A stretch of DNA of 44,341 nucleotides from Deinococcales bacterium (lineage in GTDB: Bacteria; Deinococcota; Deinococci; Deinococcales; JAAFIG01). A model generated the notes under the pieces. That model was not told the DNA's origin. It searched no databases and saw only the letters and a program-made list of their open reading frames with translations. Location: NCBI GenBank assembly GCA_031414595.1, contig JANNVX010000090.1, positions 1 through 44,341 on the forward strand. Direction: 5' to 3'. Of the stretch, positions 1-44,341 are shown in pieces. Every line of letters starts with the position of its first letter. The first letter of the stretch is position 1. A program made the position numbers and the translations under genes.

Positions 1-140
1 TATCTTTGCTGATTTGGATGCTTTGGAAGATATTTTGTGTGACCGTTGTGCTTTTCTGATGCAGAATCCTGAACTGGTTCGTGGTCGGGCTGGTTTTAGC
101 TGGCTCGATGATTAAATACTATCTAAGTAAATTTGGTATA
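1..140 (+). mobile_element. 3' end of an IS630-family insertion sequence (transposase C-terminus 2..115, right end near 138-140)
   Basis: Frame 2 reads IFADLDALEDILCDRCAFLMQNPELVRGRAGFSWLDD* (stop 113-115), resembling IS630 transposase C-termini (F.xLDxLE...RC...PE...GFxW). It is followed by ...AAATTTGGTA-TA, compatible with a terminal IR plus TA target. Confidence 0.7.
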
Positions 141-232
141 ACGCCCTCAAAGGGTGCAAAAGGCTTGGGCGGGTTGCTTTTCAGAACCTGCGGTGGCTTG
201 TGTGGCTTTGACCAGTCTTAAATGTTACTGAT

Positions 233-1039
233 CTAAGCTCGTTTGAGCAGCAGCACCAAAACAAAAATAGCGGTATTGACCAGCACAATCATTGCTCCTG
301 CTGGGGCATCAAAGTGATACGAAGCGTACAAACCAATCATACCCCCCAATGCCCCAACCAAGCTGCCGACCAGAATCATTTGGCTCAGTCTCGAGGTCAG
401 CATTCGGGCGGTACTGGCAGCCGTGACCAGCAGACTGACCACCAACACTGTACCGACCATTTGAATCGCCAGCACCACGGTTAAAGCAATTAGAATCATC
501 AAAAAAGCATTCAAATGCTGGACTGGCAACCCTGAAACCCGAGCTTCGATTTCGTCAAAAGCAACCAGCACCAATTCTTTACGAATCGCAAATAAGGCAG
601 CCAAAATTATAACTGTAAAGAAGGTAGTCGTAAGAATATCTTCTGGGGCAATACCAAGCGGGTCGCCAACCAATAAATGGGCTAAATCTAGGCTGTACGA
701 TTTGGTTCTCGAGAGCAGAACAATACCCAGTGCAAACATCCCAACAAAAACCGTTCCAATTGCAGCATCTTGCTTTAAGCCACTTTTTCTCGAGACCCAA
801 CCAATCCCAAGGGCAGTAATAATCGCGGCTGCCACACCCCCAAGGTAATAATCTATTTTAAGTAAGAAGGCAGCCACAATCCCCGGGAAAACCGCGTGCG
901 CCATTGCATCCCCAATATAAGATAAGCCGCGCAGTACCACAAACGCACCAATGACGCCGCAAAGCAGGGCAATAATACCGACCCCCAAAAGCGCACGCTG
1001 GAAAAACTCAAATTGCAACGGCTCGAGCAGCCAATTCAT
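233..1039 (-). CDS. Mn/Zn ABC transporter permease (ABC-3, MntB/ZnuB family)
   Basis: Very hydrophobic; contains the GDAMAHAVFPG signature; downstream of the ABC ATPase. Confidence 0.92.
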   Translation of the reverse strand: MNWLLEPLQFEFFQRALLGVGIIALLCGVIGAFVVLRGLSYIGDAMAHAVFPGIVAAFLLKIDYYLGGVAAAIITALGIGWVSRKSGLKQDAAIGTVFVGMFALGIVLLSRTKSYSLDLAHLLVGDPLGIAPEDILTTTFFTVIILAALFAIRKELVLVAFDEIEARVSGLPVQHLNAFLMILIALTVVLAIQMVGTVLVVSLLVTAASTARMLTSRLSQMILVGSLVGALGGMIGLYASYHFDAPAGAMIVLVNTAIFVLVLLLKRA

Positions 1040-1085
1040 AACGCCTCTTGTGAGCGGTTCATAACGCCTCTTGTGAGTGGTTCAC
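1035..1085. repeat. Two 23-bp tandem repeats plus a partial third at the ATPase/permease junction
   Basis: ttcataacgcctcttgtgagcgg (1035-1057), ttcataacgcctcttgtgagtgg (1058-1080), then ttcac. Confidence 0.95.
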
Positions 1086-1828
1086 AACACACCTCTCGAG
1101 AAGGTCTTGGCGATGTTCTCTGGGGTGTATACCCGTTCTGGCTTACCCGAGGCAATAACGGTCTGATTGACCAGTAATATATGCGAACACCAATTTTTAG
1201 CGGCTTCGAGGTCGTGTGTGACCATTAAAATTCCTTTTCCAGCAATCCGTTCTGCCTCGAGGAGTTCTAAGATTCGGTCTTGGGTGGTGCTGTCCACCCC
1301 ATTAAATGGTTCATCTAAGAATAACAATGAGGCTTCTCGAGCCATCATTCGTGCCAGCAATGCCCGTTGGCGTTGCCCACCAGATAAATCGCCAATTGGA
1401 CGGTGCCGTAAATCGATTAAATCAGAACGCTCGAGGGCATTCTTCACAATTTCACGGTCAGATTGAGTGGCACTTTTCAACCAACCGATTTTTTTGACCC
1501 GAGCCATCATCACCACATCCCAAACTGTGACAGGAAAAGCCCAATCGAGCGCTCTGGCTTGTGGCACATAGGCGATTTGCTGGGTTGGCTTGGGTTGTAA
1601 ATGACTCGAGAACGTAACAGTGCCTTTGAATGGCACTAAGCCCAACATGGCTTTAAGTAAAGTGCTTTTGCCCGCGCCATTCGGTCCGATAATTGCCACA
1701 AATTCACGCGGACAGAGATGGAAATTTGCGCCCTCGAGTGCCGTGGTTTCGCCGTAATTGACTCCAAGATTCTGCACATCCACCAAACGGCTCGAGTGGT
1801 CATGAGGAAAACGAGTCGCATCTGGCAT
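1082..1828 (-). CDS. Mn/Zn ABC transporter ATP-binding protein
   Basis: Walker A GPNGAGKS, YVPQ, LSGGQRQR, FLDEP, VTHD; TAGACT 6 nt upstream of the ATG. Confidence 0.93.
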   Translation of the reverse strand: MPDATRFPHDHSSRLVDVQNLGVNYGETTALEGANFHLCPREFVAIIGPNGAGKSTLLKAMLGLVPFKGTVTFSSHLQPKPTQQIAYVPQARALDWAFPVTVWDVVMMARVKKIGWLKSATQSDREIVKNALERSDLIDLRHRPIGDLSGGQRQRALLARMMAREASLLFLDEPFNGVDSTTQDRILELLEAERIAGKGILMVTHDLEAAKNWCSHILLVNQTVIASGKPERVYTPENIAKTFSRGVL

Positions 1829-1958
1829 TGGGGCAGTCTATGTCAGGTAACGCACAGGTAACAAGACCACGTTTATACTTAAGTGGACATTGAGCCATGA
1901 GCTATGAGCTTTGAGAAAGGCTTTTTGTAGGTTGTTCTCGAGGACAATGGAGGTTTTT

Positions 1959-3224
1959 ATGAAGCGACAACATTGGGTTTTAGCAGTTGGGTTAATCGGT
2001 ATTTTGGTGGCATGTCCAAATCCAAATCCAGCCGTACAATTTACGGTCACAGCCAACGCGGGGGCAAACGGCAATGTTTCGCCAATGACACAAAAAGTGA
2101 ATAGTGGTGCAACTGCCAACATAACCGTCACTGCCAACGCTGGGTTTAGCATCTCGAGTGTGACTGGTTGTGGCGGCAACCTCAACGCCAACCTTTACAC
2201 CACAGCCATCATCAGCGCAGATTGCACGGTTAATGCCACTTTTGCGGCTAATCCACCCGCCGCCACGACTGGCACAACCAATTTTGCCGTGACTGGTTCT
2301 GGGGTGCTACAAGCCTCTCGCACCTCGAGATACCGCGTTTCGGGTGTGGCTGCTCCAAATAGTGGCAGACCACTGGTTATTTTCTTACATGGCGACGGTG
2401 ACTCGAATGTCCAAGTCCCCAGTAGCTACACCACTTTTACAGATGCACAAGCGGCAGTTCTGGTTTCTCCGCAAGGCTTAAATGCCACATGGCGTTTTCG
2501 CATGGATGGCAAGGACAACGCAGGGGCTGCCGCCGAAGTAGACGATATTGCTTTTATCAAAGAAATCATCACTCGAGGCTCGAGCGCCGCCAATCCGCTT
2601 TTTGGGGCGGGAAACAAAATAGACCCAGCCAAAGTCTTTGTGGTTGGTGAATCTCGAGGGGCTGGTTTTGCCTATTATTTGTACGCTCACCCAGAGACCA
2701 AGAATTTAATAAGCGCGATTGCCCCAATTTCTGGCACTTTTTACTGCGGAACTTCTAAAGCATCCACCAATCCGAATCCTTATATTCCACCTGCCGACGC
2801 GGACATTGTTTGTGGTGAAGGAACTCAATTTGGTTACTTTGTACCAAAAGCTAGTTTGTACACTCGAGCCAGCCCACCGCGAATTTTTAATATTCACGGT
2901 TCAAACGACCTAGCCGAAACCGCCGCCCCAGCTTTAGACAACGAGTTTGGCAATTTGATTATTGTGACCAAGCAATGGGCTGCTACCTCGAGCAATTGCG
3001 GTAACGTTCTACCATCAGCCAATCCAGTCTTTAGCAACGCCAGTATCGGCGGAAAAACTGTCACGGCTTACAAGCAACGCAACACTGGCAACACTGCCCC
3101 CTGCGAGGCAGATGTGACCTTTTTTATTGTTCAAGCTGGTGGACATGTACCAAGCGGCTATGCCGAACGAATTACCAAATGGTTCTTTGGGCAGTACAAC
3201 ACCCAAACCAATACTTTTAATTAA
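1959..3224 (+). CDS. Lipoprotein alpha/beta-hydrolase (PHB depolymerase/LpqC-like esterase) with an N-terminal InlB-B-repeat-like beta domain
   Basis: SD GGAGG before ATG 1959; lipobox LVAC; PLVIFLHG, DDIAFI, nucleophile motif GESRG, IHGSND, GGH. Confidence 0.75.
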   Translation: MKRQHWVLAVGLIGILVACPNPNPAVQFTVTANAGANGNVSPMTQKVNSGATANITVTANAGFSISSVTGCGGNLNANLYTTAIISADCTVNATFAANPPAATTGTTNFAVTGSGVLQASRTSRYRVSGVAAPNSGRPLVIFLHGDGDSNVQVPSSYTTFTDAQAAVLVSPQGLNATWRFRMDGKDNAGAAAEVDDIAFIKEIITRGSSAANPLFGAGNKIDPAKVFVVGESRGAGFAYYLYAHPETKNLISAIAPISGTFYCGTSKASTNPNPYIPPADADIVCGEGTQFGYFVPKASLYTRASPPRIFNIHGSNDLAETAAPALDNEFGNLIIVTKQWAATSSNCGNVLPSANPVFSNASIGGKTVTAYKQRNTGNTAPCEADVTFFIVQAGGHVPSGYAERITKWFFGQYNTQTNTFN

Positions 3225-6553: not shown

Positions 6554-7879
6554 TTAGTCCAAACGCGCTTCTATTGCCCTTGCATGAGCCTCTAAACCTT
6601 CGGCTCGAGCCAGCAGCCTTGCATCCCCCGCTACCCGCCGCAGGGTCGAGCGATTGACTGCCACAACACTGATGATTTTTTGAAAATCCCGTAGATTAAC
6701 GGGGCTACTAAACCGCGCTGTTCCCATGGTTGGCATAACATGACTCGGACCCGCCAAGTAATCGCCCAATGCCTCCATGCTGTCCTCACCAATAAAGACC
6801 CCGCCAGCATGTTTGACCAACCCCAAAGCCGCCCACGGGTCTTTAATTAGTAAGCACAAATGCTCCGGGGCATAATGATTGGCGAACTCGAGCGCCGTGT
6901 TTAAGTTCGGCTCGAGAATCAGCTTACCGCGTTGTTGCCAAGCGTTGCGCGCCCAAGTCTGATTGGGTTCTGGCAAGGTTGCCACTTGCTGCTCGAGTTG
7001 GTACAGGGTTGCCTTGAGCATATTTTTGGATAAGGCAATTAAAACTGGTTCGGCATCCACATGCTCAGCTTGTGCCAGTAAATCGGCTGCGACATGGACT
7101 GGATTGGCGGTATCATCGGCTAAGACAAGGGTTTCGGTCGGACCTGGAAGTGAAATAATCCCAACTTGCCCGTAAACTTGGCGCATTGCCAGCACGGTGT
7201 AAATGTTTCCAGGACCGCCGATTTTATCTACCTTCGGCACAGACTGTGTACCAAACGCCATTGCCCCAACCGCGACTGCACCACCAAGCGCAAAAACTCG
7301 AGTCACACCAGACTCGAGAGCCGCCACAAGGGTTGTTGGGTCAACCACGCCAGCCTTATTGGGGGGGCTACATAAAATAATTTCAGGTACTCCCGCCACC
7401 ACTGCCACCACTGCGGTGTGAATCACACTTGAAGCCAATGGATTTGCCCCAGCCGGCGCGTACAAGCCAACCCTCTCAAGCGGACGCACCAACTGCCCAA
7501 GCGCCCCAGATTCGTTATGCTCGAGAAAGCCATGGGCTGGCTGCCGCAAATGAAAATCACGCACTCGAGCCACCGCATGACGAATTGCAGCCAGTAAAGT
7601 AGGGTCTAAGTTTTGCCGTGCCTCGAGCCACTTTTCTCGCGGCACTTCAATCCCAGTGAGCGGCACGCCATCAAGTTTAGCGGCGAACTCGAGAACCGCT
7701 TGGTCGCCACGCTTTTGAATCTCCCCAAGAATTTTTGCCACTGCTTGGTCTGGGGTGAGTGGTTCGCCAAACAAAGCACGGTTACGCTCGAGCATACTAG
7801 GGGTAACTTCGGGTTGACCAAAAGACCGAGTTAAAGCGCCTTTAGCCGCCTCACCAGAAAGAATCAAAGGGTGCATCAT
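6554..7879 (-). CDS. hisD: Histidinol dehydrogenase
   Basis: VDKIGGPGNIY, DLLAQAEH, YAPEHL, GDYLAGPSHVMPT, EGLEAHARA. Confidence 0.95.
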   Translation of the reverse strand: MMHPLILSGEAAKGALTRSFGQPEVTPSMLERNRALFGEPLTPDQAVAKILGEIQKRGDQAVLEFAAKLDGVPLTGIEVPREKWLEARQNLDPTLLAAIRHAVARVRDFHLRQPAHGFLEHNESGALGQLVRPLERVGLYAPAGANPLASSVIHTAVVAVVAGVPEIILCSPPNKAGVVDPTTLVAALESGVTRVFALGGAVAVGAMAFGTQSVPKVDKIGGPGNIYTVLAMRQVYGQVGIISLPGPTETLVLADDTANPVHVAADLLAQAEHVDAEPVLIALSKNMLKATLYQLEQQVATLPEPNQTWARNAWQQRGKLILEPNLNTALEFANHYAPEHLCLLIKDPWAALGLVKHAGGVFIGEDSMEALGDYLAGPSHVMPTMGTARFSSPVNLRDFQKIISVVAVNRSTLRRVAGDARLLARAEGLEAHARAIEARLD

Positions 7880-12560: not shown

Positions 12561-13634
12561 TTAGTTTTTGCTATACCGCCCACCTGGTAACTCGAGAATC
12601 ACGCCTTTTAAGTGTAGCATCGTCAGCGCAACCGTGGCTCGAGGAGTGATAAATCCAGTCTTCTGGCAGAGTTCATCAAGTAACAATTCGCCGTTTAGGG
12701 CTTTATAAATGGTTGCTTCGTCGCCTTCAAGTTCTGGGGCTAAACGGGGCGGAGCGGCTGTCCAACGCAAGTTCTCGAGGACATCAGCCGCCGATTCAAT
12801 CAGGCTTGCGCCTTCTTTAATCAGTTTGTGCGGTCCCCGAGACAAAAGGTCGCCGGCTCTACCCGGCACAGCAAACACTTCGCGCCCTGCCTCGAGTGCC
12901 GCCACTGCCGTAATCATTGCACCACTGTCGGTGTCGCCCTCGACGACTACACTGCCACTGCACAAACCAGCGATAATTCGGTTGCGTGGTGGAAAATTGT
13001 AACTGTTGGGTGGTGTGCCTAGGGCATAAGCAGAAATGACCGTCAGGCGTTCAGCTAAGGCTTTGTTTTCAGATGGATAAATCGTGTCTACACCGCAACC
13101 CAGCACCGCAATGCTCACACCTCCAGCATCCACAGCAGCCGTGTGTGCCACCGTGTCAATCCCTCTGGCTAATCCAGAAACCACGGTCACACCCACCAGC
13201 GCTAAATCATGAGCCAGTTTTTGGGTGAATGCCTTGGCATAGGTGCTGGCTTTGCGTGTGCCAACCACGCCGATGCTGCGTGGCAGGACACCTGTTAAAT
13301 TTTCTAAAGCACTGACTTCGCCGCGTACCCACAGCACTGGTGGCGGGTCATAAATGGCTCTTAAACTTTCGGGATACCTCGAGTCGGTTAAACCCAGTAA
13401 AGTCAAACCCATTTTTTCGGCTCGAGTCAGTTCGGCTTCGGCGCGTTGCCTAGTGGTTTCTGAGCCAATACCTGCAATACTAGCAGCGTCCAAACCACGC
13501 ACTTGCCGCAACTCGAGCAGCTTGGCACTTAAGACAGCCTCGGCAGTTCCAAAATGTTCAATTAACGCCTTGACCCGCACTGCGCCAAGCCCAGAGGTAA
13601 AAAAAAGCGACAAACAAGCAAGGAGTTCAGACAT
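12561..13634 (-). CDS. dprA: DNA processing protein DprA
   Basis: YPESLRAIYDPPPVL, VVGTR, VSGLARGIDT, FPPRNRIIAG, GREVFAVPG; start ATG 13634 overlaps the aroK stop. Confidence 0.95.
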   Translation of the reverse strand: MSELLACLSLFFTSGLGAVRVKALIEHFGTAEAVLSAKLLELRQVRGLDAASIAGIGSETTRQRAEAELTRAEKMGLTLLGLTDSRYPESLRAIYDPPPVLWVRGEVSALENLTGVLPRSIGVVGTRKASTYAKAFTQKLAHDLALVGVTVVSGLARGIDTVAHTAAVDAGGVSIAVLGCGVDTIYPSENKALAERLTVISAYALGTPPNSYNFPPRNRIIAGLCSGSVVVEGDTDSGAMITAVAALEAGREVFAVPGRAGDLLSRGPHKLIKEGASLIESAADVLENLRWTAAPPRLAPELEGDEATIYKALNGELLLDELCQKTGFITPRATVALTMLHLKGVILELPGGRYSKN

Positions 13635-14208
13635 ATTGGCTGACTTCTTTTTCATGCCACAGCTCGAGTTTTTCGACAATTTCTTGAACCACTTCACGCC
13701 GTAAACGTCCATCGGTAGAAACTTGAATTGGCGCTTGGTCATAAAAGGGTTTTCTAATCTCGAGCAATTCACGGATTTTGCCAAGTGGGTCTGGAACTTG
13801 CAGCAAAACTCGAGGGCTGCGTTTGGTGCGTTCAAGAATTGTTTCTGGACTGGCAGAAAGCGCCACCACAGGACCTCGAGTCAGCAACTTGGTACGGTTT
13901 TCTGGGTTATTAAATGTTCCTCCACCACAAGAAATCACCGCTTCGTTTAGGGCAATACAGCGCTCGATGGTTTCGGATTCATAAGCTCTAAAGGTTGGTT
14001 CGCCGTAAGCCTCAAAAATTTGTGCCACAGTTAAACCCGCCACTTTTTCAATCACTTTATCGGTATCAAAAAAATGCAGCGCCAACGCCCGAGATAATTC
14101 CCAGCCAATACGACTTTTGCCCGTTCCCATAAAACCAACCAGCGCTACCCAATCAACCGGACGATCCAGTTCGATTGGTTCACCAAGAATAGACACAAGC
14201 ACCCCCAC
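13627..14208 (-). CDS. aroK: Shikimate kinase
   Basis: LVGFMGTGKS, DTD, GEPTFRAYE, SCGGG; the exact GTG start is uncertain (14208 or 14196). Confidence 0.93.
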   Translation of the reverse strand: MGVLVSILGEPIELDRPVDWVALVGFMGTGKSRIGWELSRALALHFFDTDKVIEKVAGLTVAQIFEAYGEPTFRAYESETIERCIALNEAVISCGGGTFNNPENRTKLLTRGPVVALSASPETILERTKRSPRVLLQVPDPLGKIRELLEIRKPFYDQAPIQVSTDGRLRREVVQEIVEKLELWHEKEVSQYV

Positions 14209-16036: not shown

Positions 16037-19027
16037 TTACCGTCCTTTTTTAACATCCCGCTCAACTTTTCGCCGTTCCTGACGACTGAGTTTTTGCACT
16101 TTGGTTTGACTGGAACGAATAAAAGGGTTTGAACCGCTCGAGAAACCACTTTGCGGTGCGTCCGATTGCTCATCTGCAACAGCTTGGGCTTGTGGGGCAG
16201 CTTCAAAGTTCACTTGGACACGGAAAATAAACTTGGTCACTTCGGTTTTAATCGCTTCGGTCATTTCCGAGAATAACTTGGTGGCTTCAAATTTGTATTC
16301 GACAAACGGGTCTTTTTGTCCGTACTGACGGTTAAAAATACCACTTCGTAAGACATCCATACTGTGCAAATGCTCTTTCCAGAATTGGTCTACGATTTGC
16401 AGTACCACATAGCGCTCGAGTCCGCGCAGCACTTGTGGGGTCAGTTGTTGTTCTCGGGCTTCGTAAGCGGCGGCAGCCACGTCCAGCAGTTTATCGGTGA
16501 TGGCATCGCGGCGTTCGGTTCGCAGTGACTCAAAGTCAAAATCTTCAAAAGCGGGGCAGCAGTCCACCAGTGTGGCTCGCAGTGCCTCAAGGTCCCAGTC
16601 GTCGGAGTCTTTGGTGAAGTGAATACTGGCTTGGGTGTTGATAAAGTCCAGAATCATGCCTTCGGTTAGCTCATTGACCCCTTCATCTTTACCAAGCAGC
16701 ACTTCGCGGCGTTGGGCATAGACCACTTCACGTTGTTTGCTCATCACATCATCAAAGGCAAGCAGTTGTTTACGAATCGAAAAGTTACGGTCTTCAACCC
16801 GTTTTTGGGCGGTTTCGATAGAGCGTGTGACCATGCCGGCTTCAATCGGTTGGGTGTCGTCCATTCCGAGTCTGTCGAGCATCTTGACCACGGTTTCATT
16901 GGCAAAAAGACGCATTAAATCATCTTCAAACGACAAATAAAATTTGCTCGAGCCGGGGTCGCCTTGTCTGCCCGCCCGCCCGCGCAATTGATTGTCTATG
17001 CGCCGTGCTTCGTGGCGTTCTGTACCAATAATATGCAGCCCGCCAGCTTCTTTGACCTTAAAAAAGTCTACGCGGAATTCATCCCTGGTTTTAATGATAT
17101 GGGTTATATCGTCGTCTCCTACAGTTAGTTTATCCGCCACATGCTTCTTAGCATTTTCAATGTCGTCACGTAAACATGCTGCCACAAACAGTTCAATCCC
17201 GTCATCGTACCGACTAAAGCCCTTCTTCTCGAGGTGAGCATAGGCGGCAAATTCGGCGTTGCCACCGAGTTGAATATCGGTACCACGCCCTGCCATGTTG
17301 GTCGAAATCGTGATTGTGCCACTGCGCCCAGCCTGTGCCACAATATCGGCTTCTCGAGCGTGTTGTTTGGCGTTCAGCACATTGTGCTTGACACCTTTAC
17401 GCAAAATAGACAGCACATGAACTTCTTTTTCCAGTTGCTCAAAGTACATAATTGCATTTTTTGGCAGTTTAGCCCGTACTCCCTCGAGTTTATCTGGGGT
17501 TAAAGCACCCGGATTAGACAAGAGCTTCTGCATTTCTTCGATTAAGGCTGCGCTGCCTTTAGCCAGTTGCGCCTGTAATGCCCCAGCGCTTTTTTCTAAG
17601 AACTGCACATAGCGGTTTGGTTCAGACAGCAATTTACTTAAGAACTCGGATTTTTCGATAGATACTGTACCGACCAAGACTGGTTGCCCAGATTTGTGCT
17701 TTTCGATTAACTCCTCAACCACTGCCTTAAACTTGCCCAGTTCGGTGCGGTAGACCAAATCCTGTGCGTCTTTACGCACCATTGGCAGGTTGGTTGGAAT
17801 CACCAAGACATCGGCGTTATAGAGTTCGATAAATTCTTTTTCTTCGGTTTTGGCAGTACCCGTCATGCCACCAATTTTGTTGTAGAGCTTAAAGAAATTT
17901 TGGTAGGTAATGGTGGCAAGTGTCTGGTTTTCGCCAGCGATTTTGACATTTTCTTTGGCTTCGATGGCTTGGTGTAAGCCTTCGCCGTAACGACGACCGG
18001 GCATTAAACGACCTGTGAATTCATCCACGATGATTACTTCGCCTTCTTGGACGATATAATCCACATCTTTTTTGTAATGCTCGTTGGCACGAATCGCCTG
18101 CATTAGCATATGCCCAAGTTCCATGTTCTCGGTGGTAAACAGCCCGTCTATGCTGAGCAATTTCTCGGCTTTGTTAATCCCACCTTCGGTCAAATGGACA
18201 TTGCGACCTTTTTCGTCTACCGTAAAGTCCCCAGTTGGTTCAGTACGGGTTTTATCGCCCGGCACAACCGCTTCGCCCTTCTCGAGCATCCCCGCGATTT
18301 TGGTCATGAGGTAATAATTGGTGGTGCTTTTTTCCGAAGCGCCTGAGATAATGAGCGGTGTCCGAGCCTCATCAATTAAAATGCTGTCCACTTCGTCAAT
18401 AATGCAAAAGTTAAGTGGTGTGTCGGCACGAAGCACCAAGTTTTCTGGAGCGGGCGACATGTTATCGCGCAGATAATCAAATCCCAGTTCGGAGTTGGTG
18501 ATATAAGTAATATCGCAACTGTAAGCACCTTGGCGTTCTTGTGGCTGCATGGCGCTTTGGATGATTCCAACGCTTAAGCCCAGTGTCTTAAAAATCAGCC
18601 CCATTTGTTCTGCGCCAACCTTAACCAAGTAATCGTTCGCCGTGACCAAATGTGCGCCCTTGCCCGAAATCGCGTTTAAGGACAGTGCCAAAGTTGCAGC
18701 CAAGGTCTTGCCTTCGCCTGTTTTCATTTCGGCAATTCGCCCAGAATGCAGCGCTGCCCCAGCGATCAGTTGCACATCGTAATGGCGTTTACCAAGGGTG
18801 CGTTTACTGGCTTCTCGAGCCAAGGCAAAGGCTTCAACCATCAGCTTCTCTAAAGTCTCGCCGTCCTTATGGCGCAGTTTTAACTTGCCAAATTCTTCGG
18901 CTAAATGCTCGGTAGCCAGTTTTTCCATTTCACTCTCGAGGGCATTGACCTTTGACACCACATCTTTTTGCAGTTTCGCCACATCTTTGGCGTTGTTATC
19001 AAATAATTTATTAATAATTCCTAACAT
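16037..19027 (-). CDS. secA: Preprotein translocase ATPase SecA
   Basis: MKTGEGKT, IIDEVDSILIDEARTPLIISG, TNMAGRGTDI, RRIDNQLRGRAGRQGDPG. Confidence 0.98.
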   Translation of the reverse strand: MLGIINKLFDNNAKDVAKLQKDVVSKVNALESEMEKLATEHLAEEFGKLKLRHKDGETLEKLMVEAFALAREASKRTLGKRHYDVQLIAGAALHSGRIAEMKTGEGKTLAATLALSLNAISGKGAHLVTANDYLVKVGAEQMGLIFKTLGLSVGIIQSAMQPQERQGAYSCDITYITNSELGFDYLRDNMSPAPENLVLRADTPLNFCIIDEVDSILIDEARTPLIISGASEKSTTNYYLMTKIAGMLEKGEAVVPGDKTRTEPTGDFTVDEKGRNVHLTEGGINKAEKLLSIDGLFTTENMELGHMLMQAIRANEHYKKDVDYIVQEGEVIIVDEFTGRLMPGRRYGEGLHQAIEAKENVKIAGENQTLATITYQNFFKLYNKIGGMTGTAKTEEKEFIELYNADVLVIPTNLPMVRKDAQDLVYRTELGKFKAVVEELIEKHKSGQPVLVGTVSIEKSEFLSKLLSEPNRYVQFLEKSAGALQAQLAKGSAALIEEMQKLLSNPGALTPDKLEGVRAKLPKNAIMYFEQLEKEVHVLSILRKGVKHNVLNAKQHAREADIVAQAGRSGTITISTNMAGRGTDIQLGGNAEFAAYAHLEKKGFSRYDDGIELFVAACLRDDIENAKKHVADKLTVGDDDITHIIKTRDEFRVDFFKVKEAGGLHIIGTERHEARRIDNQLRGRAGRQGDPGSSKFYLSFEDDLMRLFANETVVKMLDRLGMDDTQPIEAGMVTRSIETAQKRVEDRNFSIRKQLLAFDDVMSKQREVVYAQRREVLLGKDEGVNELTEGMILDFINTQASIHFTKDSDDWDLEALRATLVDCCPAFEDFDFESLRTERRDAITDKLLDVAAAAYEAREQQLTPQVLRGLERYVVLQIVDQFWKEHLHSMDVLRSGIFNRQYGQKDPFVEYKFEATKLFSEMTEAIKTEVTKFIFRVQVNFEAAPQAQAVADEQSDAPQSGFSSGSNPFIRSSQTKVQKLSRQERRKVERDVKKGR

Positions 19028-27169: not shown

Positions 27170-29976
27170 CTAAAATTTTCTTGTAATGTTTGTACCCACC
27201 GACGTACATATTTACTCTTATGCGTCGCAAGCGTTGGAAGTGATTTCTTAATCAAATCAAACAATGGTTTTTTAAGTTTCTGAAAATTCTGAAATGCTGA
27301 TTGTAGTATTGCTTGTATAACGTATTGACTCCCATTTTCTAGTTCAGTGCGGATAGTATTCATGATCAAACCATTTAAGGGATTTTTATTACTAGGTATA
27401 AATTTTACCAGCAATGAGAGAGCTTCCCCACGAATCCGTTGGCTCGTGTTTTTTGTTAGATTGTGAAGACAAAGTATCCAAATCTCATTCTGCTGTTTAC
27501 TTAACAGTATGCTGCACACATCTGATGCAGCAAGCAAAATATCAGGTTCTGTTTCTGTATTCAACGCTTTTAACAAAATCTCCCGCTCAGCAATGCTCAA
27601 AGTTTTTCCAAGCAATGCTTTTACTTGTAGCCAACGTAGTTGGGGTACTACCTTTTTGCTGCTTGAAAAAATAATACTTTCAATTTCTCGAGAATTAATG
27701 TGACTGGCATCTATTTTTCCTATGGCTATTCCCACAATATCCTTTTGTTTGTCGGGCATAACCTCAAGTAATTCAATGAGTGCCTTCATGTCTGATGCTT
27801 TATATATGCTTTCGATGTTTGAATTTTGTAACGCAAGCAATAACTGCTCGGCAATTTTTCCTAAATCGAGCGACTGAAGCTCTATTGGATATGCTTGATA
27901 AGCGGAAGCAACAAGTCTCAAATCCACAAAACGACCAGAACTTATACTTTCATTGCCCTCGATTTTCTCAAGTTTTTTAGAATAGTCAGAGATATATTTT
28001 TGAATCCAACTTAAAATTAATGGAGCAGCAGTTGAATGATGTCGGTCAGTTAAATATGCCCAAATAAGTGTTTCTTTTTCGGAATTCGTATCAGCATCAG
28101 CAAAATTAGTATTGTCGTTCAGGAAGTTCAGAATGTAATGATCGATAATTGGTTCAAGTTCCAAAAATACCCTTCCAATACGCCATAGAATACCGATTGA
28201 AAATCGGAAATCCCATGATTGCTTAGGACTTAATTCAATAAGTACATTGGTAACTTCAGTAGCTATTTCACTTTCTGAATCTTTCCAGTCATGTTGTGCA
28301 ATTAATTTCCAGAAACCATGTACATCTGGCGTTTGATTTCGTATTACTTGTACGAGTTCAGAGATTTGTGAAGTTGTTAAAGTTGCAATTTCAGAAAAAG
28401 CATCAATAAAATAAATAGGATAGTGATTTCTTCCTCTTATCATCGGAATTTGAATATCGAAATTACTTTTATAGTATCGCATCGTCAAACCAAAAAATTC
28501 ATCTGAAACTGATTTTTGAGTTGATTGAGAAAAGTAAAAGCCTAGTTCTCGGATTATACGAAGTATCATTATTGAAATCTCATCGGCTGCACGCCCATGA
28601 CCTTCTTTTGGTCGGGTTAAAGCAAGTTTTTCAAGAGTTAAACCTAATCCGTCCGTTGGTGTTTCTAAACACTTCACAAAAGCGGTTTGTTCACTCTTAA
28701 TTAACTTTTCCAAGTATTTGTCATCTTTAGCAGCTACAAGCAACTCTATAGACATTGCTAGGGTGTCAGAATCAGAGCGATTTGTTGCGTGATAATAGTT
28801 CAAGCCTCCTAACGCTGTCTTGATTCGAGTTTTTCGAGTAGTTGTGAGGTCGCCAACCAAATAGCCCAATGCTAACGCTCGATTCATTGCCATTATTCCG
28901 TCGCCTATACCTCCACCAAATCGCCACGAACCTTCGAGCTTAAAATTTAATTCAAAGGCTTCTTTATTGATTTCGAGAGTAATTTCGTTGATGCTTGAAT
29001 CTTGTGCAGGATGGCTATACCAAGTGGGTATTTTCCTAGCATCCTCAACCAGTTCAGCAGTTTTATCCCAATCATTATTAAATCGCAGAATATCAAATTC
29101 AAGTGCCTGCCTAAACCAATTTCGGTTTTTCTCATTGGGTATTGACTCAAGTTGTCCCATTGCTGTTCTATAGCACAACAGCGATTCGGTGGAATCTCCT
29201 AATTCATACGCTAATGTTCCACGCAATCGGTGATATGCAATTCGTCTTGTGGATTCCAGCTTATCTACTCTGACAGAATCAAGTTTGCTTTTGGCTGTTT
29301 CAAAATCTCCTTCAATGGACAAAATCACAACGTCTTCTAAAATTTCTGCATCAAGTTTATCCACCTTTTCTTTTGCTGCTTTAATCATTTCAGAATATGC
29401 CGTGAAATCCGAATGCTGCAAAATTGAATTCAGTTTTTCCGACCAAGGAATCAAATGATATATGCCCATCAAATCCTCGAGTACGGGTATTGCTCCAACT
29501 TTTGGGTCTATAATATCGGATTTAAGCGGATTAACTATTTCAACAGGTCGAGGCTTACTTACTAGATCTATAATTAAATCCATTTTTTCAGTATCTCGAT
29601 CTCGTTTTTCGTTTAGTATTTTAATAGCTGGTTCTGCAACACGAATATGAAAATCTTGTAATTCTGTTAAAATTGCGTTTTGCTTCACACACAGTTTTTC
29701 ATCTTGAAAAATATTCAATTTAATAAAAACGCTATGCAATTCTTGTATTGTGGCAGCTTGAGAGAATTCTCTACTAATAACCCTATCTCTTTTCAAAAAC
29801 GTTAGCGTTCCATTGATTTCGTCGCGCCGCTCTAGGTAACTTAGTACCTGAGTGACAAAATCTCGTAAGAAAGCCTCTTTTTTTGCTTCTTCGAGTTGTC
29901 CTTTGAAAAACAGACGAATCCTATCTAAGATTCCCACAGTTGCATCTGCACTTCCCAAAAACTCAACAAATCCCAT
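27166..29976 (-). CDS. Large AT-rich hypothetical protein (about 936 aa), helical repeat-like (TPR-like N-half, HEAT-like C-terminus)
   Basis: Long open frame; visibly lower GC than its flanks; TGaTATAGT 5 nt before ATG 29976; no recognisable enzyme motif. Confidence 0.75.
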   Translation of the reverse strand: MGFVEFLGSADATVGILDRIRLFFKGQLEEAKKEAFLRDFVTQVLSYLERRDEINGTLTFLKRDRVISREFSQAATIQELHSVFIKLNIFQDEKLCVKQNAILTELQDFHIRVAEPAIKILNEKRDRDTEKMDLIIDLVSKPRPVEIVNPLKSDIIDPKVGAIPVLEDLMGIYHLIPWSEKLNSILQHSDFTAYSEMIKAAKEKVDKLDAEILEDVVILSIEGDFETAKSKLDSVRVDKLESTRRIAYHRLRGTLAYELGDSTESLLCYRTAMGQLESIPNEKNRNWFRQALEFDILRFNNDWDKTAELVEDARKIPTWYSHPAQDSSINEITLEINKEAFELNFKLEGSWRFGGGIGDGIMAMNRALALGYLVGDLTTTRKTRIKTALGGLNYYHATNRSDSDTLAMSIELLVAAKDDKYLEKLIKSEQTAFVKCLETPTDGLGLTLEKLALTRPKEGHGRAADEISIMILRIIRELGFYFSQSTQKSVSDEFFGLTMRYYKSNFDIQIPMIRGRNHYPIYFIDAFSEIATLTTSQISELVQVIRNQTPDVHGFWKLIAQHDWKDSESEIATEVTNVLIELSPKQSWDFRFSIGILWRIGRVFLELEPIIDHYILNFLNDNTNFADADTNSEKETLIWAYLTDRHHSTAAPLILSWIQKYISDYSKKLEKIEGNESISSGRFVDLRLVASAYQAYPIELQSLDLGKIAEQLLLALQNSNIESIYKASDMKALIELLEVMPDKQKDIVGIAIGKIDASHINSREIESIIFSSSKKVVPQLRWLQVKALLGKTLSIAEREILLKALNTETEPDILLAASDVCSILLSKQQNEIWILCLHNLTKNTSQRIRGEALSLLVKFIPSNKNPLNGLIMNTIRTELENGSQYVIQAILQSAFQNFQKLKKPLFDLIKKSLPTLATHKSKYVRRWVQTLQENFS

Positions 29977-30082
29977 GACCAACTATATCAAAAAATTCTG
30001 ATATGAGCAGAACACTTTGTTCAATTAAGTGTTAAGGGTTTGCTTTACCAATTTGACAATTGAAATACTCTTTTTGATAGGT

Positions 30083-30315: not shown

Positions 30316-30320
30316 TACAT

Positions 30321-33083: not shown

Positions 33084-33092
33084 ACTCGAGAC

Positions 33093-33947
33093 ATGAGCCA
33101 TGTTTTAACTGCCATAAAAAACATTCTGGCAGGGCAGCATTTTAGCCTAAGCGACCAAGCAGTTGGGATAAATCGGGTCAACCGACAAGGTGAAGCCTTT
33201 GAAGTTTTTATGCGCCGAGCCTTTGCCAATGATTTTACCGCCGCTTCTGAAATAGAACTGACCAAAAGAACTCAGGGCATTTTTTCCTATGCTTCGAGCG
33301 GTTCAAATCCACCAGACTTGATTCTACGTGGTGGAGATGCAATCGAAATCAAGAAATTTGAGAAAGCTGTTTCCACAATTCAATTAAATAGCTCGTACCC
33401 TAAAGCATTCTTAGATAGCAATTATGCGCTTTTGACCGAAGAATGTCGTCGGTGTGAACCAAACTGGATTCGTAAGGATTTAATTTATGTTCTAGCCGTG
33501 ATTCAAAGTAAAAAAATTCAAGAACTCTGGTTTGTAGATGGCGCTTGCTATGCTGCCAGCCGTGAAGTTTATGAATCCGTGTTTGAGCGCATAAAAACTT
33601 CAGTTCACTCGAGCATCGGTTTAGAGGTCACCAATTCAGAATTGGGTCGGATTATCAATGTTGACCCATTACAACGCACCCAATTACGAATTCGCGGGAT
33701 GTGGTTGATGGAACATCCTCGGGTTGCTTTTGCTTCGCTTTTTACACCTTCTAAACGTGCCAAATTAACGATTCGCGTCGTCTTACGTGAATCAAAGTAC
33801 CAAAAGTTTATTGCAGACACCCCTAACATTGAAGCCGAATTACAGCAACTCGGTTGTGTTATTCGACCTAACGATGTCCTCGACCCAAATAACCGTGCCA
33901 AAGTTATACCCGTAACAACACTGCAATTTGAGGCGGGTTATGCCTAA
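33093..33947 (+). CDS. Type II restriction endonuclease, NgoPII-like (predicted GGCC)
   Basis: NRVNRQGEAFE, NPPDLILRGGDAIEIKK, IQLNSSYPK, VDPL...LRIRGMW resemble the NgoPII family. Confidence 0.82.
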   Translation: MSHVLTAIKNILAGQHFSLSDQAVGINRVNRQGEAFEVFMRRAFANDFTAASEIELTKRTQGIFSYASSGSNPPDLILRGGDAIEIKKFEKAVSTIQLNSSYPKAFLDSNYALLTEECRRCEPNWIRKDLIYVLAVIQSKKIQELWFVDGACYAASREVYESVFERIKTSVHSSIGLEVTNSELGRIINVDPLQRTQLRIRGMWLMEHPRVAFASLFTPSKRAKLTIRVVLRESKYQKFIADTPNIEAELQQLGCVIRPNDVLDPNNRAKVIPVTTLQFEAGYA

Positions 33948-35067
33948 CCTGATTTCATTATTTTCTGGGGCTGGTGGACTGGATTTAGGTTTCCATTGGG
34001 CGGGTTTTCGCACCCTCTGGGCAAATGAATTTGATAAAGAAATCTGGACGACTTTTCAACATAATTTCCCACAAACGTATCTCGAGAAAAAAAGTATCAC
34101 CCAAATTTCTATAGATGACATACCAAAAGCCACAGGACTGATTGGCGGACCACCCTGCCAAAGTTGGTCTGAGGCTGGTGCTGGACGTGGTTTTTCGGAT
34201 ACTCGAGGTCGGTTGTTTACAGATTATATTCGGGTTTTAGAAGCCAAGCAACCGCTTTTTTTTGTGGCAGAAAATGTGTCTGGCATTCTGCATCAAAAGC
34301 ATCAAGCCAGCGTGCATGGTTTTCTTCAAGCCTTTGAAGAAGCTGGTTATTCTGTGCGCGTTATTTCGGTCAATGCCAATGACTTCGGTGTAGCCCAAGA
34401 ACGCCATCGGGTTTTTTTTATCGGCTATCGTTTAGACACAGGTAAGATTTTTCAGATGCCACCAGCTTATTTTTTGCGTCCAACACTCGAAAACGCCATT
34501 CGAGATTTAGAACATACTGCCACCCCTGCGCTCGAGAAAAATTATGCCAACCCGCACCTCGAGATTCCCAACCACGAGTATTGGCAGGGTGATTTCTCGA
34601 GCCATTATTTATCGCGCAATCGGGTTCGAGTTTGGGATGAGCCTTCGTTTACGATCCAAGCCAGTGGTCGCCATGCCCCAATGCACCCTCAAGCCCCAAG
34701 AATGGAATTTGTACACCGTGACTTATTTCGGTTCGCTGATGGTTACGAACATCTGTATCGGCGTTTAAGTGTACGTGAAGCGGCTCGAGTACAAAGTTTT
34801 CCAGATTCTTTTATTTTTTACTATAAAAATCTGGCTGATGGTTATAAAATGGTGGGCAATGCCGTACCTCCAAAACTGGCAAGGGTGATTGCTGAGCAAA
34901 TCCGTGCTGATTTATTTGTGCCAAGCATTGAATTCCAATCGAATGTCGCACAAGACGGACTGAATAAGCAATCAGTGTTTGCTCCTCCAATACCAATCTT
35001 TAAAACGCATTTTCGTTCAAAATTGGCGAATGACCAAACGAAAATCAGTGGCAAATCTAGCCTTTGA
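33940..35067 (+). CDS. C5-cytosine DNA methyltransferase, HaeIII/NgoPII-like (predicted GGCC)
   Basis: FSGAGG, GGPPCQSWS, ENV, QERHRV, target-recognition segment SRNRVR.W.EP.FTIQASGR..HPQAP, GNAVPP. Confidence 0.92.
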   Translation: MPNLISLFSGAGGLDLGFHWAGFRTLWANEFDKEIWTTFQHNFPQTYLEKKSITQISIDDIPKATGLIGGPPCQSWSEAGAGRGFSDTRGRLFTDYIRVLEAKQPLFFVAENVSGILHQKHQASVHGFLQAFEEAGYSVRVISVNANDFGVAQERHRVFFIGYRLDTGKIFQMPPAYFLRPTLENAIRDLEHTATPALEKNYANPHLEIPNHEYWQGDFSSHYLSRNRVRVWDEPSFTIQASGRHAPMHPQAPRMEFVHRDLFRFADGYEHLYRRLSVREAARVQSFPDSFIFYYKNLADGYKMVGNAVPPKLARVIAEQIRADLFVPSIEFQSNVAQDGLNKQSVFAPPIPIFKTHFRSKLANDQTKISGKSSL

Positions 35068-36822: not shown

Positions 36823-36838
36823 AACCCTCGTTTAGCAA

Positions 36839-36866
36839 AAGGGACTCGAGAAACCTCGAGTCCCTT
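36839..36866 (-). terminator. Intercistronic hairpin built from two CTCGAG sites
   Basis: aagggactcgag-aaac-ctcgagtccctt between the binding-protein and permease genes. Confidence 0.75.
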
Positions 36867-36873
36867 AATGTTT

Positions 36874-38223: not shown

Positions 38224-38288
38224 GGGCTTCTCCTGTTGGACTACCTCGAGCCGTTCCACAAAGTGTGGATAGGGCAAATCGAGATATT

Positions 38289-38477: not shown

Positions 38478-38580
38478 AATTAATATCAGTTTATTACACC
38501 AGCCAAAAAGACCAAAAAGGCAGGTTGAGCCTATGAAACCGCAACAACACAATACTGCTATGCTGATGGGTAGAAAAACC

Positions 38581-39603: not shown

Positions 39604-39620
39604 CCCCATGAGGACAGCTT

Positions 39621-42398: not shown

Positions 42399-42422
42399 AG
42401 GCGTAGTCTACTCGAGTTTAGT

Positions 42423-43856
42423 TCAAATCCCAAGCGAAATATACTTGGTAAACAGGTACTCATCTAAGCCCCAATGCCCACCTTCGCGTCCGTACCCCGA
42501 TTGCTTAACCCCGCCAAACGGCGCTTGAACGGTACTTGGCACAGCATCGTTTAAGCCAATAATGCCGTACTCGAGACTTTCGGCGACACGCACCGCCCGA
42601 GAAATATCTTTTGTCCAGATATACGCCGCTAAGCCAAACGGGGTGTTATTAGCGGCTGTGATTGCTTCCTCTTCGGTGTCAAAAGAAACAATCGGAGCAA
42701 CTGGACCAAAGGTTTCTTCCTGCATTAAAAGCATATCGGCAGTTACATTACCCAGTACCGTTGGTGCAAAAATCAATCCCTCGAGGGCAACACCGCCCGT
42801 AATAACGGTTGCACCTTTTGCAGTCGCGTCCTCCACATGACGCACCACTTTCTCGAGTCCAGCCCTGTCTACCACAGGACCAATCTGGGTGCTGGTCTCG
42901 AGGGGGTCGCCAATTTTAAGTTGGGCAACTGCTTCACCAAGTTTTTTGCTAAATTCCTCGAGAATACTGCGCTGCACATACACACGGTTGGTGCAAACAC
43001 ACGTCTGCCCTGCGTTGCGGAATTTACAGGCAATTACGTCTTTTACAGCTTGCTCGAGATTCGCATCTTCAAAAATTAGGTAGGGCGCGTGTCCGCCAAG
43101 TTCCATTGAGACTCGTTTGAGGGTGTCGGCAGCTTGTTTAACCAGAATTTTTCCAACTTCGGTACTGCCGGTAAAGGTAATTTTACGGATTCGTTCGTCT
43201 TCCATAAAAACCTTGGACACAGCTACAGGGTCGTTGGTGGTGATAACCTGAAAAACATCACCGTGTCCGCCAGCCTCGAGCCAAAGTTGGGCAAGTTTTA
43301 GGGCAGTTAAAGGTGATTGCTCGGCGGGTTTTAGAACTATCGTACAACCGGCTGATAATGCAGGCGCAAGTTTACGGGTGACCATTGCGGCAGGAAAATT
43401 CCACGGTGTGACTGCGTAGACTGCGCCAACGGGTTGCCGAATGGCAAACAGGCGTTTATGGGCAAATTGGCTTGGGATGGTCTCGCCATAAATGCGTTTG
43501 GCTTCCTCGGCATACCAATCCACAAAACCAGCCGCGTAACGCACTTCACCTAAGGCTTCTGAAACAGGTTTTCCCATCTCGAGGGCAATCGTTTGGGCAA
43601 TTTCTTGTTCATCCCGAATGATTAAATTAAAGAATTTTCTAAGTAGCGCCCCGCGTTCGTAGGCAGTGGTTTTAAACCACCATTTGAAGGCTTCAACACT
43701 TGCTTCAAGTGCGGTTTGGGCTTGTAGCACACCACAATCGGCAACTCGAGCAATCTCTAAGCCCGTGTACGGATTGGTGACAGCAAAAGTGTCTGTTGTG
43801 TTGATGAATTGCCCAGCAATAAAAGCTCGAGTTTCGCCCGTAAATGTTGTGGTCAT
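42423..43856 (-). CDS. gabD: NAD(P)-dependent succinate-semialdehyde dehydrogenase
   Basis: TPWNFPAAM, FTGSTEVG, MELGGHAP, FRNAGQTCVC, EETFGPV, PFGGVKQSG. Confidence 0.92.
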   Translation of the reverse strand: MTTTFTGETRAFIAGQFINTTDTFAVTNPYTGLEIARVADCGVLQAQTALEASVEAFKWWFKTTAYERGALLRKFFNLIIRDEQEIAQTIALEMGKPVSEALGEVRYAAGFVDWYAEEAKRIYGETIPSQFAHKRLFAIRQPVGAVYAVTPWNFPAAMVTRKLAPALSAGCTIVLKPAEQSPLTALKLAQLWLEAGGHGDVFQVITTNDPVAVSKVFMEDERIRKITFTGSTEVGKILVKQAADTLKRVSMELGGHAPYLIFEDANLEQAVKDVIACKFRNAGQTCVCTNRVYVQRSILEEFSKKLGEAVAQLKIGDPLETSTQIGPVVDRAGLEKVVRHVEDATAKGATVITGGVALEGLIFAPTVLGNVTADMLLMQEETFGPVAPIVSFDTEEEAITAANNTPFGLAAYIWTKDISRAVRVAESLEYGIIGLNDAVPSTVQAPFGGVKQSGYGREGGHWGLDEYLFTKYISLGI

Positions 43857-44138
43857 GTCGTAATTTTAACTTAATTACTTAGTCAGTAGTTGCACGGCTT
43901 GTACGCCGCGAATCTCGAGAAAAGCAGTTTTGGTAGTTTCAAACTTTCCTGTGCAGTACAGTTTTATGTTGTTTTTTGAAGATTCTTTATGATTGTTTGC
44001 TATTCCTGAAGAATTCGTGCAGTCAACAAGTCACTGCACGCGACTACACGAAGACTATACGATCAGATCATACCCTGAAGTTGCTGCTGATTCTGATTAT
44101 TTTTGGTATCAGCAATAAGGGAGAAAAATCACATGAAA

Positions 44139-44168
44139 AACGCAACGCAACGCAACGCAACGCAACGC
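44139..44168 (+). repeat. (AACGC)6 simple sequence repeat just after an ATG
   Basis: AAGGGAG SD, ATG at 44133, then six AACGC units. Confidence 0.9.
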
Positions 44169-44203
44169 AGTAGCTCGAGCAATCATTCACAATCGGGAGA
44201 AAC

Positions 44204-44341
44204 TAAGTGCTTCCCGTGTAACAATCAGATAATGACACCTCCAATTGCTGTCAACGCTACCATCAAAGCAGCCCGCAATTCAGTCAGTGAGTCATAACAA
44301 CGACGCGGCATCAAAAATCCTTTGATTTTACGCCAGATATT
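44204..44341 (-). mobile_element. 3' end of a second IS630-family element (transposase C-terminus 44225..>44341)
   Basis: Minus strand NIWRKIKGFLMPRRCYDSLTELRAALMVALTAIGGVII*, resembling Deinococcus IS630 transposase ends; terminal TAAGTGCTTCCC at 44204. Confidence 0.7.

Follow-up and report, generated by a model that had tools for sequence, protein, structure and literature searches.

Why should a single six-base palindrome occur about five times in every kilobase of a bacterial genome, within genes and between them? The question is posed by a stretch of 44,341 nucleotides (positions 1..44341, referred to at this full length as the window) from a member of the Deinococcales, in which the hexamer CTCGAG, identical on both strands as a palindrome, is found 225 times (5.1/kb). 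The initial annotation, made from the letters of the window, had noticed this abundance, and its hand counts were exact, at 24 copies for the initial 4 kb, 11 for hisD and 9 for secA. In 100 dinucleotide-preserving shuffles of the window the word appeared 4.46 times on average (sd 2.06) and at most 11 times; 0 of the 100 reached 225. Genome-wide hexamer counts, which the annotation had proposed as a check, extend the excess to the entire genome that holds the window as contig C90 (G000; 4.49 Mb in 120 contigs, 47.2% guanine plus cytosine (GC), 94% complete). CTCGAG occurs there 23,235 times, 5.18/kb or about once per 190 bases, against expectations of 972, 534 and 1,281 under Markov models of order 0, 1 and 2; the excess is 24-fold over order 0 and 44-fold over order 1. 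It ranks first among all hexamers (runner-up 7,481, median hexamer 908), and 3.1% of all bases of the genome lie inside it. An order-4 Markov null, which expects 19,988 copies (ratio 1.16), was discarded as self-referential: CTCGAG itself accounts for 69% of all TCGA and approximately 90% of all CTCGA. The excess is confirmed as that of a genuine, genome-wide word resembling the hyper-iterated palindromes (HIPs) of cyanobacteria. No published report of abundant CTCGAG in any genome was found in the full-text literature, the supplementary tables of the HIP papers excluded, and its abundance in Deinococcales is apparently so far undescribed.

One answer would be that the word is artefactual or simply follows from codon and dipeptide usage; its probability is negligible. 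The initial annotation had reasoned that an assembly artefact should be absent from independent genomes of the clade; instead, metagenome-assembled genomes (MAGs) of several projects and one complete chromosome are equally dense, all 19 of 19 genomes of the family, from several projects, carry the word, and Logan contigs from 4 of 4 runs span window positions 20001-40000 with 0 differences over these 20 kb (the runs may be the source samples). Codon usage was addressed with a coding set of 3,236 non-overlapping open reading frames (ORFs) of at least 150 amino acids, a crude gene set covering 83% of G000, in which 19,140 sites were observed. Shuffling synonymous codons within each gene left 1,804-1,865 sites in five replicates (summarized as 1,844), a 10-fold excess, and permuting codons left 852-926 sites in five replicates (summarized as 870), a 22-fold excess; the excess survives both codon-preserving nulls, and the view that neither codon nor amino-acid preference can account for it is upheld. 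Codon usage is favored to some extent by the phase distribution, in which the in-frame reading CTC|GAG is the commonest (11,401 of 19,114 coding sites), and by high-GC relatives, in which codon usage by itself lifts the count, as in three high-GC phage contigs where a synonymous shuffle produced 40-105 copies against 89-242 observed. The other two phases (xCT|CGA|Gxx, 3,703 sites; xxC|TCG|AGx, 4,010 sites) and the non-coding DNA are nevertheless equally rich, and the claim that sites occur in all three codon phases and in intergenic DNA holds genome-wide and in the window, respectively. The dipeptide Leu-Glu occurs 18,979 times against 8,545 expected, approximately doubled and the top ratio of all dipeptides, compared to 8,373 occurrences of Glu-Leu; CTCGAG writes 60% of all Leu-Glu, though 16% of all leucines are written CTC and 33% of all glutamates GAG. 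The Ser-Ser dipeptide stands at 1.49 times its expectation. The force that maintains CTCGAG is strong enough to reshape the proteome.

The flanks of the word, out to 12 bases on either side, carry at most 0.026 bit per position, and palindromic 8-mers around it fall short of expectation (for CCTCGAGG, 178 copies compared to 708 predicted from the margins); since the flanks hold no information, the unit is the bare hexamer and not a repeat element. Within the window, non-coding DNA carries 32 sites in 4,690 nt (6.8/kb), and coding DNA 4.9/kb. Across the genome, sites become mildly denser around stop codons, without any sharp feature: the final 45 nt of genes and the 60 nt that follow them reach 7-8/kb. 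Individual genes differ: hisD, for histidinol dehydrogenase (6554..7879, minus strand; PF00815, E value 2.3e-133), has 11 sites (8.3/kb), and the highly conserved secA (16037..19027, minus strand) has 9 sites, its 3.0/kb lying below the average. The 68 tRNA genes of G000 contain 7 copies compared to the 27.5 that genome density would give; no 16S gene is present in the G000 assembly. Site density drops as constraint rises, as expected for a force that acts on the DNA and competes with other functions. As an aside, five of the seven tRNA-borne copies fall within 3 kb, in a cluster of tRNA genes for Ser, Ser, Cys, Thr and Glu (G000:C56:144-2945).

Sites are kept where they are more often than their surroundings. 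Positional conservation in orthologs had been suggested as a check, and orthologous pieces of the window from five genomes of the same genus bear it out: relative to G000, intact sites outnumber intact control hexamers in 5 of 5 genomes, with 87% against 72% in G075 (93% nucleotide identity), 91% against 64% in G055 (91% identity), 81% against 51% in G090 (88% identity), 77% against 29% in G010 (80% identity), and 73% against 27% in G015 (78.5% identity). Across these five genomes, third codon positions in the window diverge by 5.9-17.5% inside sites and by 14.6-41.8% outside, that is, two to three times more slowly inside. Longer comparisons, with G015 again and with G005, gave the same picture. 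Of 371 kb of G015, 272,661 bases could be aligned to G000 (79.3% identity); both genomes have 1,103 sites in common, with a further 599 in G015 only and 335 in G000 only, amounting to 65-77% conserved compared to 30.3% of control hexamers. Of 400 kb of G005, 203,157 bases could be aligned (75.7% identity), with 720 common sites, 529 in G005 only and 379 in G000 only, or 58-66% conserved compared to 22.8%. To judge from these alignments, CTCGAG sites are maintained and yet turn over. Isolated sites persist somewhat more often; the conserved fraction is 0.60 for sites with a neighbor at 30 bp or less, and increases up to 0.735 for those whose nearest neighbor lies 201-400 bp away.

The spacing of sites follows rules of its own. 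Gaps between successive sites in G000 are near-exponential overall (mean 191, median 138), with departures at both ends: relative to the exponential, gaps of 6-10 bp reach 0.3, of 10-20 bp 0.53, of 50-200 bp 1.1-1.27, and of 400-1000 bp 0.67-0.86, followed by a tail of 42 gaps longer than 1.5 kb that matches site-poor islands. A start-to-start distance of 6, which would create GAGCTC, does not occur in the genome (0 cases); a distance of 7 occurs 101 times, at unique loci, several of them at the tips of hairpins. In 3-kb bins the mean is 15.6 sites (sd 4.67, variance 21.8); since the variance exceeds the mean at this scale, the evenness of spacing is short-range only. The window itself contains the closest permitted tandem pair, CTCGAG-N-CTCGAG (2572..2584, sites at 2572 and 2579, distance 7), and an intergenic pair 10 bases apart between two transporter genes (36845..36860, sites at 36845 and 36855).

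The spacing was also compared between lineages. Pairs of sites were counted in alignable DNA against a null in which sites are placed randomly among positions where both genomes differ. In the comparison with G015, pairs of two shared sites amount to 0.29 of expectation at 7-15 bp, 0.48 at 16-30 bp, 0.75 at 31-60 bp and 0.86 at 61-100 bp, and pairs of two G015-only sites to 0.40-0.95 of expectation. Pairs that combine a G015-only with a G000-only site are enriched: 1.62-fold at 16-30 bp, 1.31-fold at 31-60 bp, 1.47-fold at 61-100 bp (86 observed against 58 expected, z score 4.0), and 1.2- to 1.3-fold out to 200 bp. When only gap-free pairs at 16-100 bp are considered, opposite-lineage pairs number 152 against 109 expected, G015-only pairs 79 against 98, and shared pairs 236 against 329. 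The repulsion is replicated with G005, where shared pairs stand at 0.13, 0.46 and 0.63 of expectation at 7-15, 16-30 and 31-60 bp, and G005-only pairs at 0.08, 0.66 and 0.75. Local heterogeneity in substitution rate is excluded as a cause of the contrast between same-lineage and opposite-lineage pairs, because pairs of the same lineage would then rise as well. Repulsion holds between co-resident sites, up to distances of about 60-100 bp, and not between sites of opposite lineages; taken together, a site is kept where no other is nearby, a site close to another is dispensable, and losses are matched by nearby gains, at least in one species pair (G000 and G015).

A density-dependent, selection-like maintenance of CTCGAG is likely on these grounds. 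Selection-like pressure on local density would keep the word throughout the resident DNA of this Deinococcales family; approximately one copy would persist in every 100-200 bp, any further copy within some 60 bp would add little and would not be maintained, a lost copy would tend to be replaced nearby, and recent arrivals of DNA would be without the word. Such density behavior implies a reader, which could most simply be a dimeric CTCGAG-binding protein that acts on the stretch of DNA around each site. Abundance, conservation, spacing and the failure to find a cognate enzyme are observations; the existence of a reader and its function are inferred from them. The best explanation as a whole, a HIP-type word under density-dependent, selection-like upkeep that is read by a protein, is proposed tentatively, at a little short of even confidence. 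It invites comparison with HIP1 (GCGATCGC) and the alternate hexamer and pentamer HIPs, which are likewise palindromic, over-represented tens-fold, and present in all reading frames and in intergenic DNA; like CTCGAG, HIP1 is also conserved in position between genomes beyond background and is common to a whole clade. To our knowledge, HIP1 has gone unexplained for three decades and is known only from cyanobacteria.

In the available portion of Elhai (2015; PMC4390886), a methyl-directed repair ratchet is modeled for HIPs. Applied here, such a ratchet, or alternatively very-short-patch repair, would convert near-cognate words to CTCGAG in connection with methylation, and the word would be a functionless by-product; the initial annotation had listed a methyltransferase-linked mutational drive of this kind beside an uptake bias and a binding protein. 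The same portion of that paper reports a matching methyltransferase wherever a cyanobacterial HIP is frequent, and G000 is well supplied with methyltransferases, approximately 25 genes (5 C5 enzymes, 9 N6_N4 matches, about 10 of the N6_Mtase/Eco57I type, and 1 Dam-like). Moreover, methyl-directed repair also predicts diminishing returns from extra sites, and the transversion neighbors of CTCGAG are depleted in G000 (0.17-0.69 of expectation), as if they had been absorbed into it. The single-base variants, in contrast, do not follow the cyanobacterial pattern. One-base deviations of HIP1 concentrate at its first and last bases in the part of the paper at hand (Elhai, 2015; PMC4390886), whereas no position-specific bias was found among variants of CTCGAG, genome-wide or between G000 and G015: transition neighbors in G000 stand at 1.23 (positions 1/6), 1.11 (2/5) and 1.07 (3/4) of expectation, and among 262 cases in which the other genome of the G000-G015 pair carries a one-base variant of a site, 219 are transitions that distribute over these half-site positions as 77, 46 and 96. 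A deamination or very-short-patch mechanism would single out one position, and is disfavored since none stands out. The very-short-patch repair of Escherichia coli, in which Dcm and Vsr participate, enriches CCWGG. In principle a methylated palindrome might gain in number through such a repair bias, but the CTCGAG excess is far larger, its deamination product CTTGAG/CTCAAG stands at 1.07 of expectation in G000 without position-specific depletion, and Vsr (PF03852) found no match in G000 at 94% completeness while the control matched in 3 of 14 genomes.

The enzymes themselves do not offer a cognate either. Systems of the XhoI/PaeR7I type recognize the same word, but they normally accompany avoidance of their site. 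The XhoI-family nuclease (PF04555) was absent from G000 and from all 19 family genomes (0/19); a first search had no match in the control genomes either and was therefore extended across the order, where 6 of 201 genomes matched, 5 of them in another family. The methyltransferase that adjoins XhoI nucleases elsewhere in the order (340 amino acids, PF01555) has no homolog in G000 above 33% identity over most of its length, apart from a 69-residue fragment at a contig end with 47% identity; the search for an orphan methyltransferase of the XhoI/PaeR7I type that the initial annotation had recommended returned nothing beyond these two matches. No methyltransferase ortholog common to the family was found among five Pfam families. 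C5 enzymes were not found in 2 of 19 family genomes (G035, 91% complete, and G030, 82% complete), and PF01555 and PF07669 were not found in 4 and 3 of 19, both sets including G025, a complete chromosome in a single contig. Of 16 N6_Mtase and D12 enzymes from five relatives, one has a likely ortholog in G000 (58.6% identity). A C5 methyltransferase on contig C44 (G000:C44:14182-15336, locus L085) was considered as a candidate for its native composition and rejected as not conserved: this most native-looking enzyme is full-length in G000, a partial ORF with 92% identity in G010 and a 60% homolog in one genome of another family, and is reduced to N-terminal remnants of 45-67 residues (76-95% identity) in five genomes of the same genus. 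Neither its comparison with PDB nor the NCBIfam names of 22 G000 methyltransferases were informative about specificity. Searching the literature for methylation of the word yielded a sole match, 5-methylcytosine at CTCGAG in a Halorubrum, as given in the section of the paper that was available (PMC8112702). Finally, the repulsion of co-resident sites without repulsion between lineages is not predicted if sites are created independently. A methylation- or repair-driven ratchet of independent site creation fits the data poorly, is distinctly unlikely as an explanation, and comes out as the worst of the three ideas in the initial annotation.

The window itself contains no CTCGAG-specific enzyme, as had been claimed; its sole restriction-modification pair is an NgoPII-type restriction endonuclease with a C5 cytosine methyltransferase (33093..35067, plus strand; PF09521, E value 1.2e-74, and PF00145, E value 6.7e-87), whose target is GGCC. 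This system is not a CTCGAG enzyme, but explains the near absence of GGCC from G000 (152 copies against 13,951 expected); GATC stands at 0.14 of expectation. The many methyltransferases fit the extreme avoidance of most other hexamer palindromes in this genome: approximately 30 of the 64 stand below 0.1 of expectation, among them GGGCCC (0 copies), TGCGCA (2), CGATCG (3) and GACGTC (3), for which about 800-1000 would be expected. The NgoPII-type genes are retained in G090 at 89% identity. In G055, contig C245 aligns with both flanks of window positions 33086-35056 and not with the approximately 1.97 kb between them; its slot seems to hold a different insert of nearly equal length.

A structural role is the next possibility. 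A nucleoid-associated or chromosome-structuring dimeric protein could bind CTCGAG every 100-200 bp and thereby compact or organize the chromosome, and for HIP1 selection, a 10-90 kb periodicity and a role in chromosome or nucleoid structure are argued in the accessible text of Xu, Lawrence and Durand (2018; PMC5861425). This account agrees with the uniform coverage of 98.8% of the genome by CTCGAG, in coding and non-coding DNA alike and on both strands, with the conservation of sites, and with an exclusion zone of about 20-60 bp that resembles a protein footprint; yet foreign islands devoid of sites are tolerated, related families carry the word at widely different levels, and no candidate protein was found, which leaves such an array unlikely as the explanation. 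The complement of this uniform coverage consists of only 15 site-poor regions of at most 1 site/kb, 54 kb in total or 1.2% of the genome, mostly of low GC. One of the 15, at about 26.5-30.0 kb, lies in the window (26810..29982, minus strand; GC 0.37-0.41 across its two ORFs); it comprises a 119-residue ORF without any site and a 938-residue ORF with 2 sites (0.7/kb, GC 0.37), neither of which matched a Pfam family. Since a counterpart of window positions of about 26.8-30.3 kb was absent in 5 of 5 same-genus genomes searched, this island looks like recently acquired, strain-specific DNA that is so far without the word.

Islands of this kind could also speak for a self-marker similar to Chi that controls a nuclease or a defense system, with the consequence that DNA without frequent CTCGAG is degraded or restricted. 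The under-representation of gaps of 400-1000 bp (0.67-0.86 of expectation) would agree, as would a proviral-looking, GC-poor viral contig whose 12 sites all lie within the first 2.4 kb, the remaining 13.4 kb being free of them (it has no blastn match to G000), and a Chi-like effect of HIP1 is suggested in the available text of a preprint on strain PCC 7002. The candidate nucleases do not support the account: the AddAB/RecB-type domain PDDEXK_1 (PF12705) was found in 3 of 18 family relatives and in a 256-residue ORF of G000, whereas two families of the order with lower CTCGAG levels have it in 41 of 53 genomes each. A link to AddAB/RecB-type nucleases was rejected because these domains do not track the word; furthermore, site-poor islands persist in the genome and no candidate system was found, and a self-marker of this kind is very unlikely.

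Viral DNA was surveyed separately. A scan of IMG/VR for three clustered CTCGAG returned at least 120 stretches. Three contigs with 2.5-2.9 sites/kb were considered as phages of the clade and rejected; these are the high-GC contigs mentioned above, they exceed a synonymous shuffle only 2.2- to 2.4-fold and are also rich in CGATCG, and they provide no usable evidence on phages of the clade. A separate observation concerns a complete viral contig of 110 kb with direct terminal repeats (L290, IMG/VR record G204), which contains 318 CTCGAG and no GAGCTC; its bases 8-185 hold an array of CTCGAG at an exact 15-base spacing.

What the reader would accomplish is a further question. CTCGAG might tag DNA as the lineage's own when conspecific DNA is taken up or recombined homologously; if so, what looks like selection could be the kind of molecular drive described for uptake sequences. 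A role in uptake or recombination is weakly favored, as a possibility. The DNA uptake sequences (DUS) of Neisseriaceae and the uptake signal sequences (USS) of Pasteurellaceae are asymmetric words of 9-12 nt that occur about once per kilobase. The likeness lies in genome-wide presence in coding and non-coding DNA, different strengths in related genera, rarity in recently acquired DNA, a short-range spacing that is more even than chance, and the presence of competence genes: comEC (PF03772) was found in all family genomes but one (18 of 19; the exception is 79% complete), and the competence and recombination-mediator gene dprA (DNA processing protein A; 12561..13835, minus strand; PF02481, E value 8.8e-69), with 10 sites, lies in the window. 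The initial annotation had taken dprA as a hint toward uptake; as dprA and comEC are near-universal, its presence is no evidence. The uptake bias and the binding protein that it had proposed are both compatible with the spacing data, the former without specific support. For HIP1, uptake has been approached on two occasions, with a methylation-dependent gain in transformation in the portion at hand of a preprint (Kamoku and Nielsen, 2024) and with the hypothesis of an uptake signal in the available text of Rodriguez-Cruz et al. (2026; PMC13756078), where HIP1 was studied by phylogenetic regression.

As a caveat, several points weigh against a selected word that is read by a protein as the mark of resident DNA. 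No reader protein was found, no observation links CTCGAG directly with uptake, recombination or another process, and the near-universal comEC and dprA contribute nothing specific by their presence. As a six-base palindrome, about five times denser than DUS or USS and set in flanks free of information, CTCGAG departs from the known uptake sequences; we know of no uptake bias or receptor in any Deinococcota, and cultured Thermus and Deinococcus take up DNA without a sequence preference known to us. Methylation by non-orthologous enzymes or by methyltransferases of other families is possible, and every genome examined has some methyltransferases whose specificity cannot be read from their sequence. 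The spacing rules have weaknesses of their own. Repulsion at 7-30 bp could in part express an avoidance of the hairpins that a palindrome forms with a second copy of itself, a factor that could contribute below about 30 bp and hardly at 31-100 bp; the attraction of opposite-lineage sites is clear in only one of the two species pairs, as opposite-lineage pairs with G005 are not depleted (1.61-fold at 7-15 bp) and at 16-100 bp number 151 against 139 expected (z score 1.2); the comparisons with G015 and G005 both include G000 and are not independent; and the null of the pair tests takes no account of coding potential.

How far the word extends beyond this genome was followed first through secA, whose orthologs (70-99% identity) place the organism among uncultured Deinococcales MAGs. 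At 16 secA loci with at least 70% SecA identity (GC 45-60%), CTCGAG reaches 13-31 times its order-0 expectation; secA loci named Deinococcus have 0-6 sites per approximately 22 kb compared to 7-8 expected (the site-poor loci of Deinococcus type are L017-L025, L036, L045, L063, L067 and L071). Whole-genome counts across the order covered 201 genomes, with GAGCTC, the reverse of CTCGAG, as control word; the labels Truepera-, Meiothermus-, Thermus- and Deinococcus-like for groups of genomes are inferred, partly from named secA loci. In the family of G000, all 19 of 19 genomes in 5 genera have 4.3-6.8 CTCGAG per kb and 0-568 GAGCTC per genome. A second family, taken as Truepera-like, has 0.3-2.6 CTCGAG per kb; genera taken as Meiothermus-like have 1.4-3.4/kb with GAGCTC several-fold lower; a genus with 2-Mb genomes, taken as Thermus, has about 0.6-1.6/kb with GAGCTC about equal; and a genus of 51 genomes, taken as Deinococcus, has 26-942 CTCGAG per genome. 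None of the 53 genomes of the family to which this Deinococcus-labeled genus belongs yielded an XhoI-family nuclease. Across the order, one family has CTCGAG in great excess, several others show a moderate enrichment, and Deinococcus avoids it. The CTCGAG-rich family consists of uncultured relatives of Deinococcus, of which no isolate is known to us.

Set against HIP1, CTCGAG is a different word, belongs to an unrelated phylum and is more frequent, with a copy per 190 bp compared to approximately one per 1000 nt for HIP1 (from the available part of Elhai, 2015; PMC4390886), without a clade-conserved orphan methyltransferase as far as five Pfam families show, without outer-base bias in its one-off variants, and with a short-range repulsion and compensatory turnover that are not described in the accessible portions of the HIP1 texts. 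It provides an independent test case for the HIP1 question, with no evident link to a methyltransferase, with cultured Meiothermus- and Truepera-like relatives at intermediate levels, and, given the avoidance in Deinococcus, with natural contrasts inside a single order. The repulsion below about 60-100 bp and the replacement of sites nearby constrain any mechanism, and can be checked in HIP1 genomes. On a wider view, CTCGAG could represent a second, independent origin of a HIP, in Deinococcota, that is kept by selection on local density without a dedicated methyltransferase and is read by a protein as a mark of the lineage's own DNA, in uptake, recombination or the handling of the chromosome. 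This combination is doubtful; if true, such words would be a general mark of the own genome, and not a by-product of methylation and repair in cyanobacteria. In practical terms, CTCGAG is a strong compositional marker for binning the clade and for spotting foreign DNA, and XhoI would cut these genomes to fragments of approximately 190 bp unless the sites are methylated.

Repeated sequences were noticed at three places in the window. At least 13 other contigs of G000 (C22, C35, C114, C67, C34, C47, C32, C23, C63, C12, C26, C111 and C24) carry positions 1-142 at 99-100% identity, at their ends or close to them; the stretch is probably the terminus of a mobile element whose repetition interrupts the assembly. 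The non-coding stretch 15741-15980 recurs on many contigs of relatives at 73-76% identity, and within a second non-coding stretch, 7786-7958, positions 7786-7922 recur on contig C77 of G000 at 92% identity; both may be small dispersed repeats.

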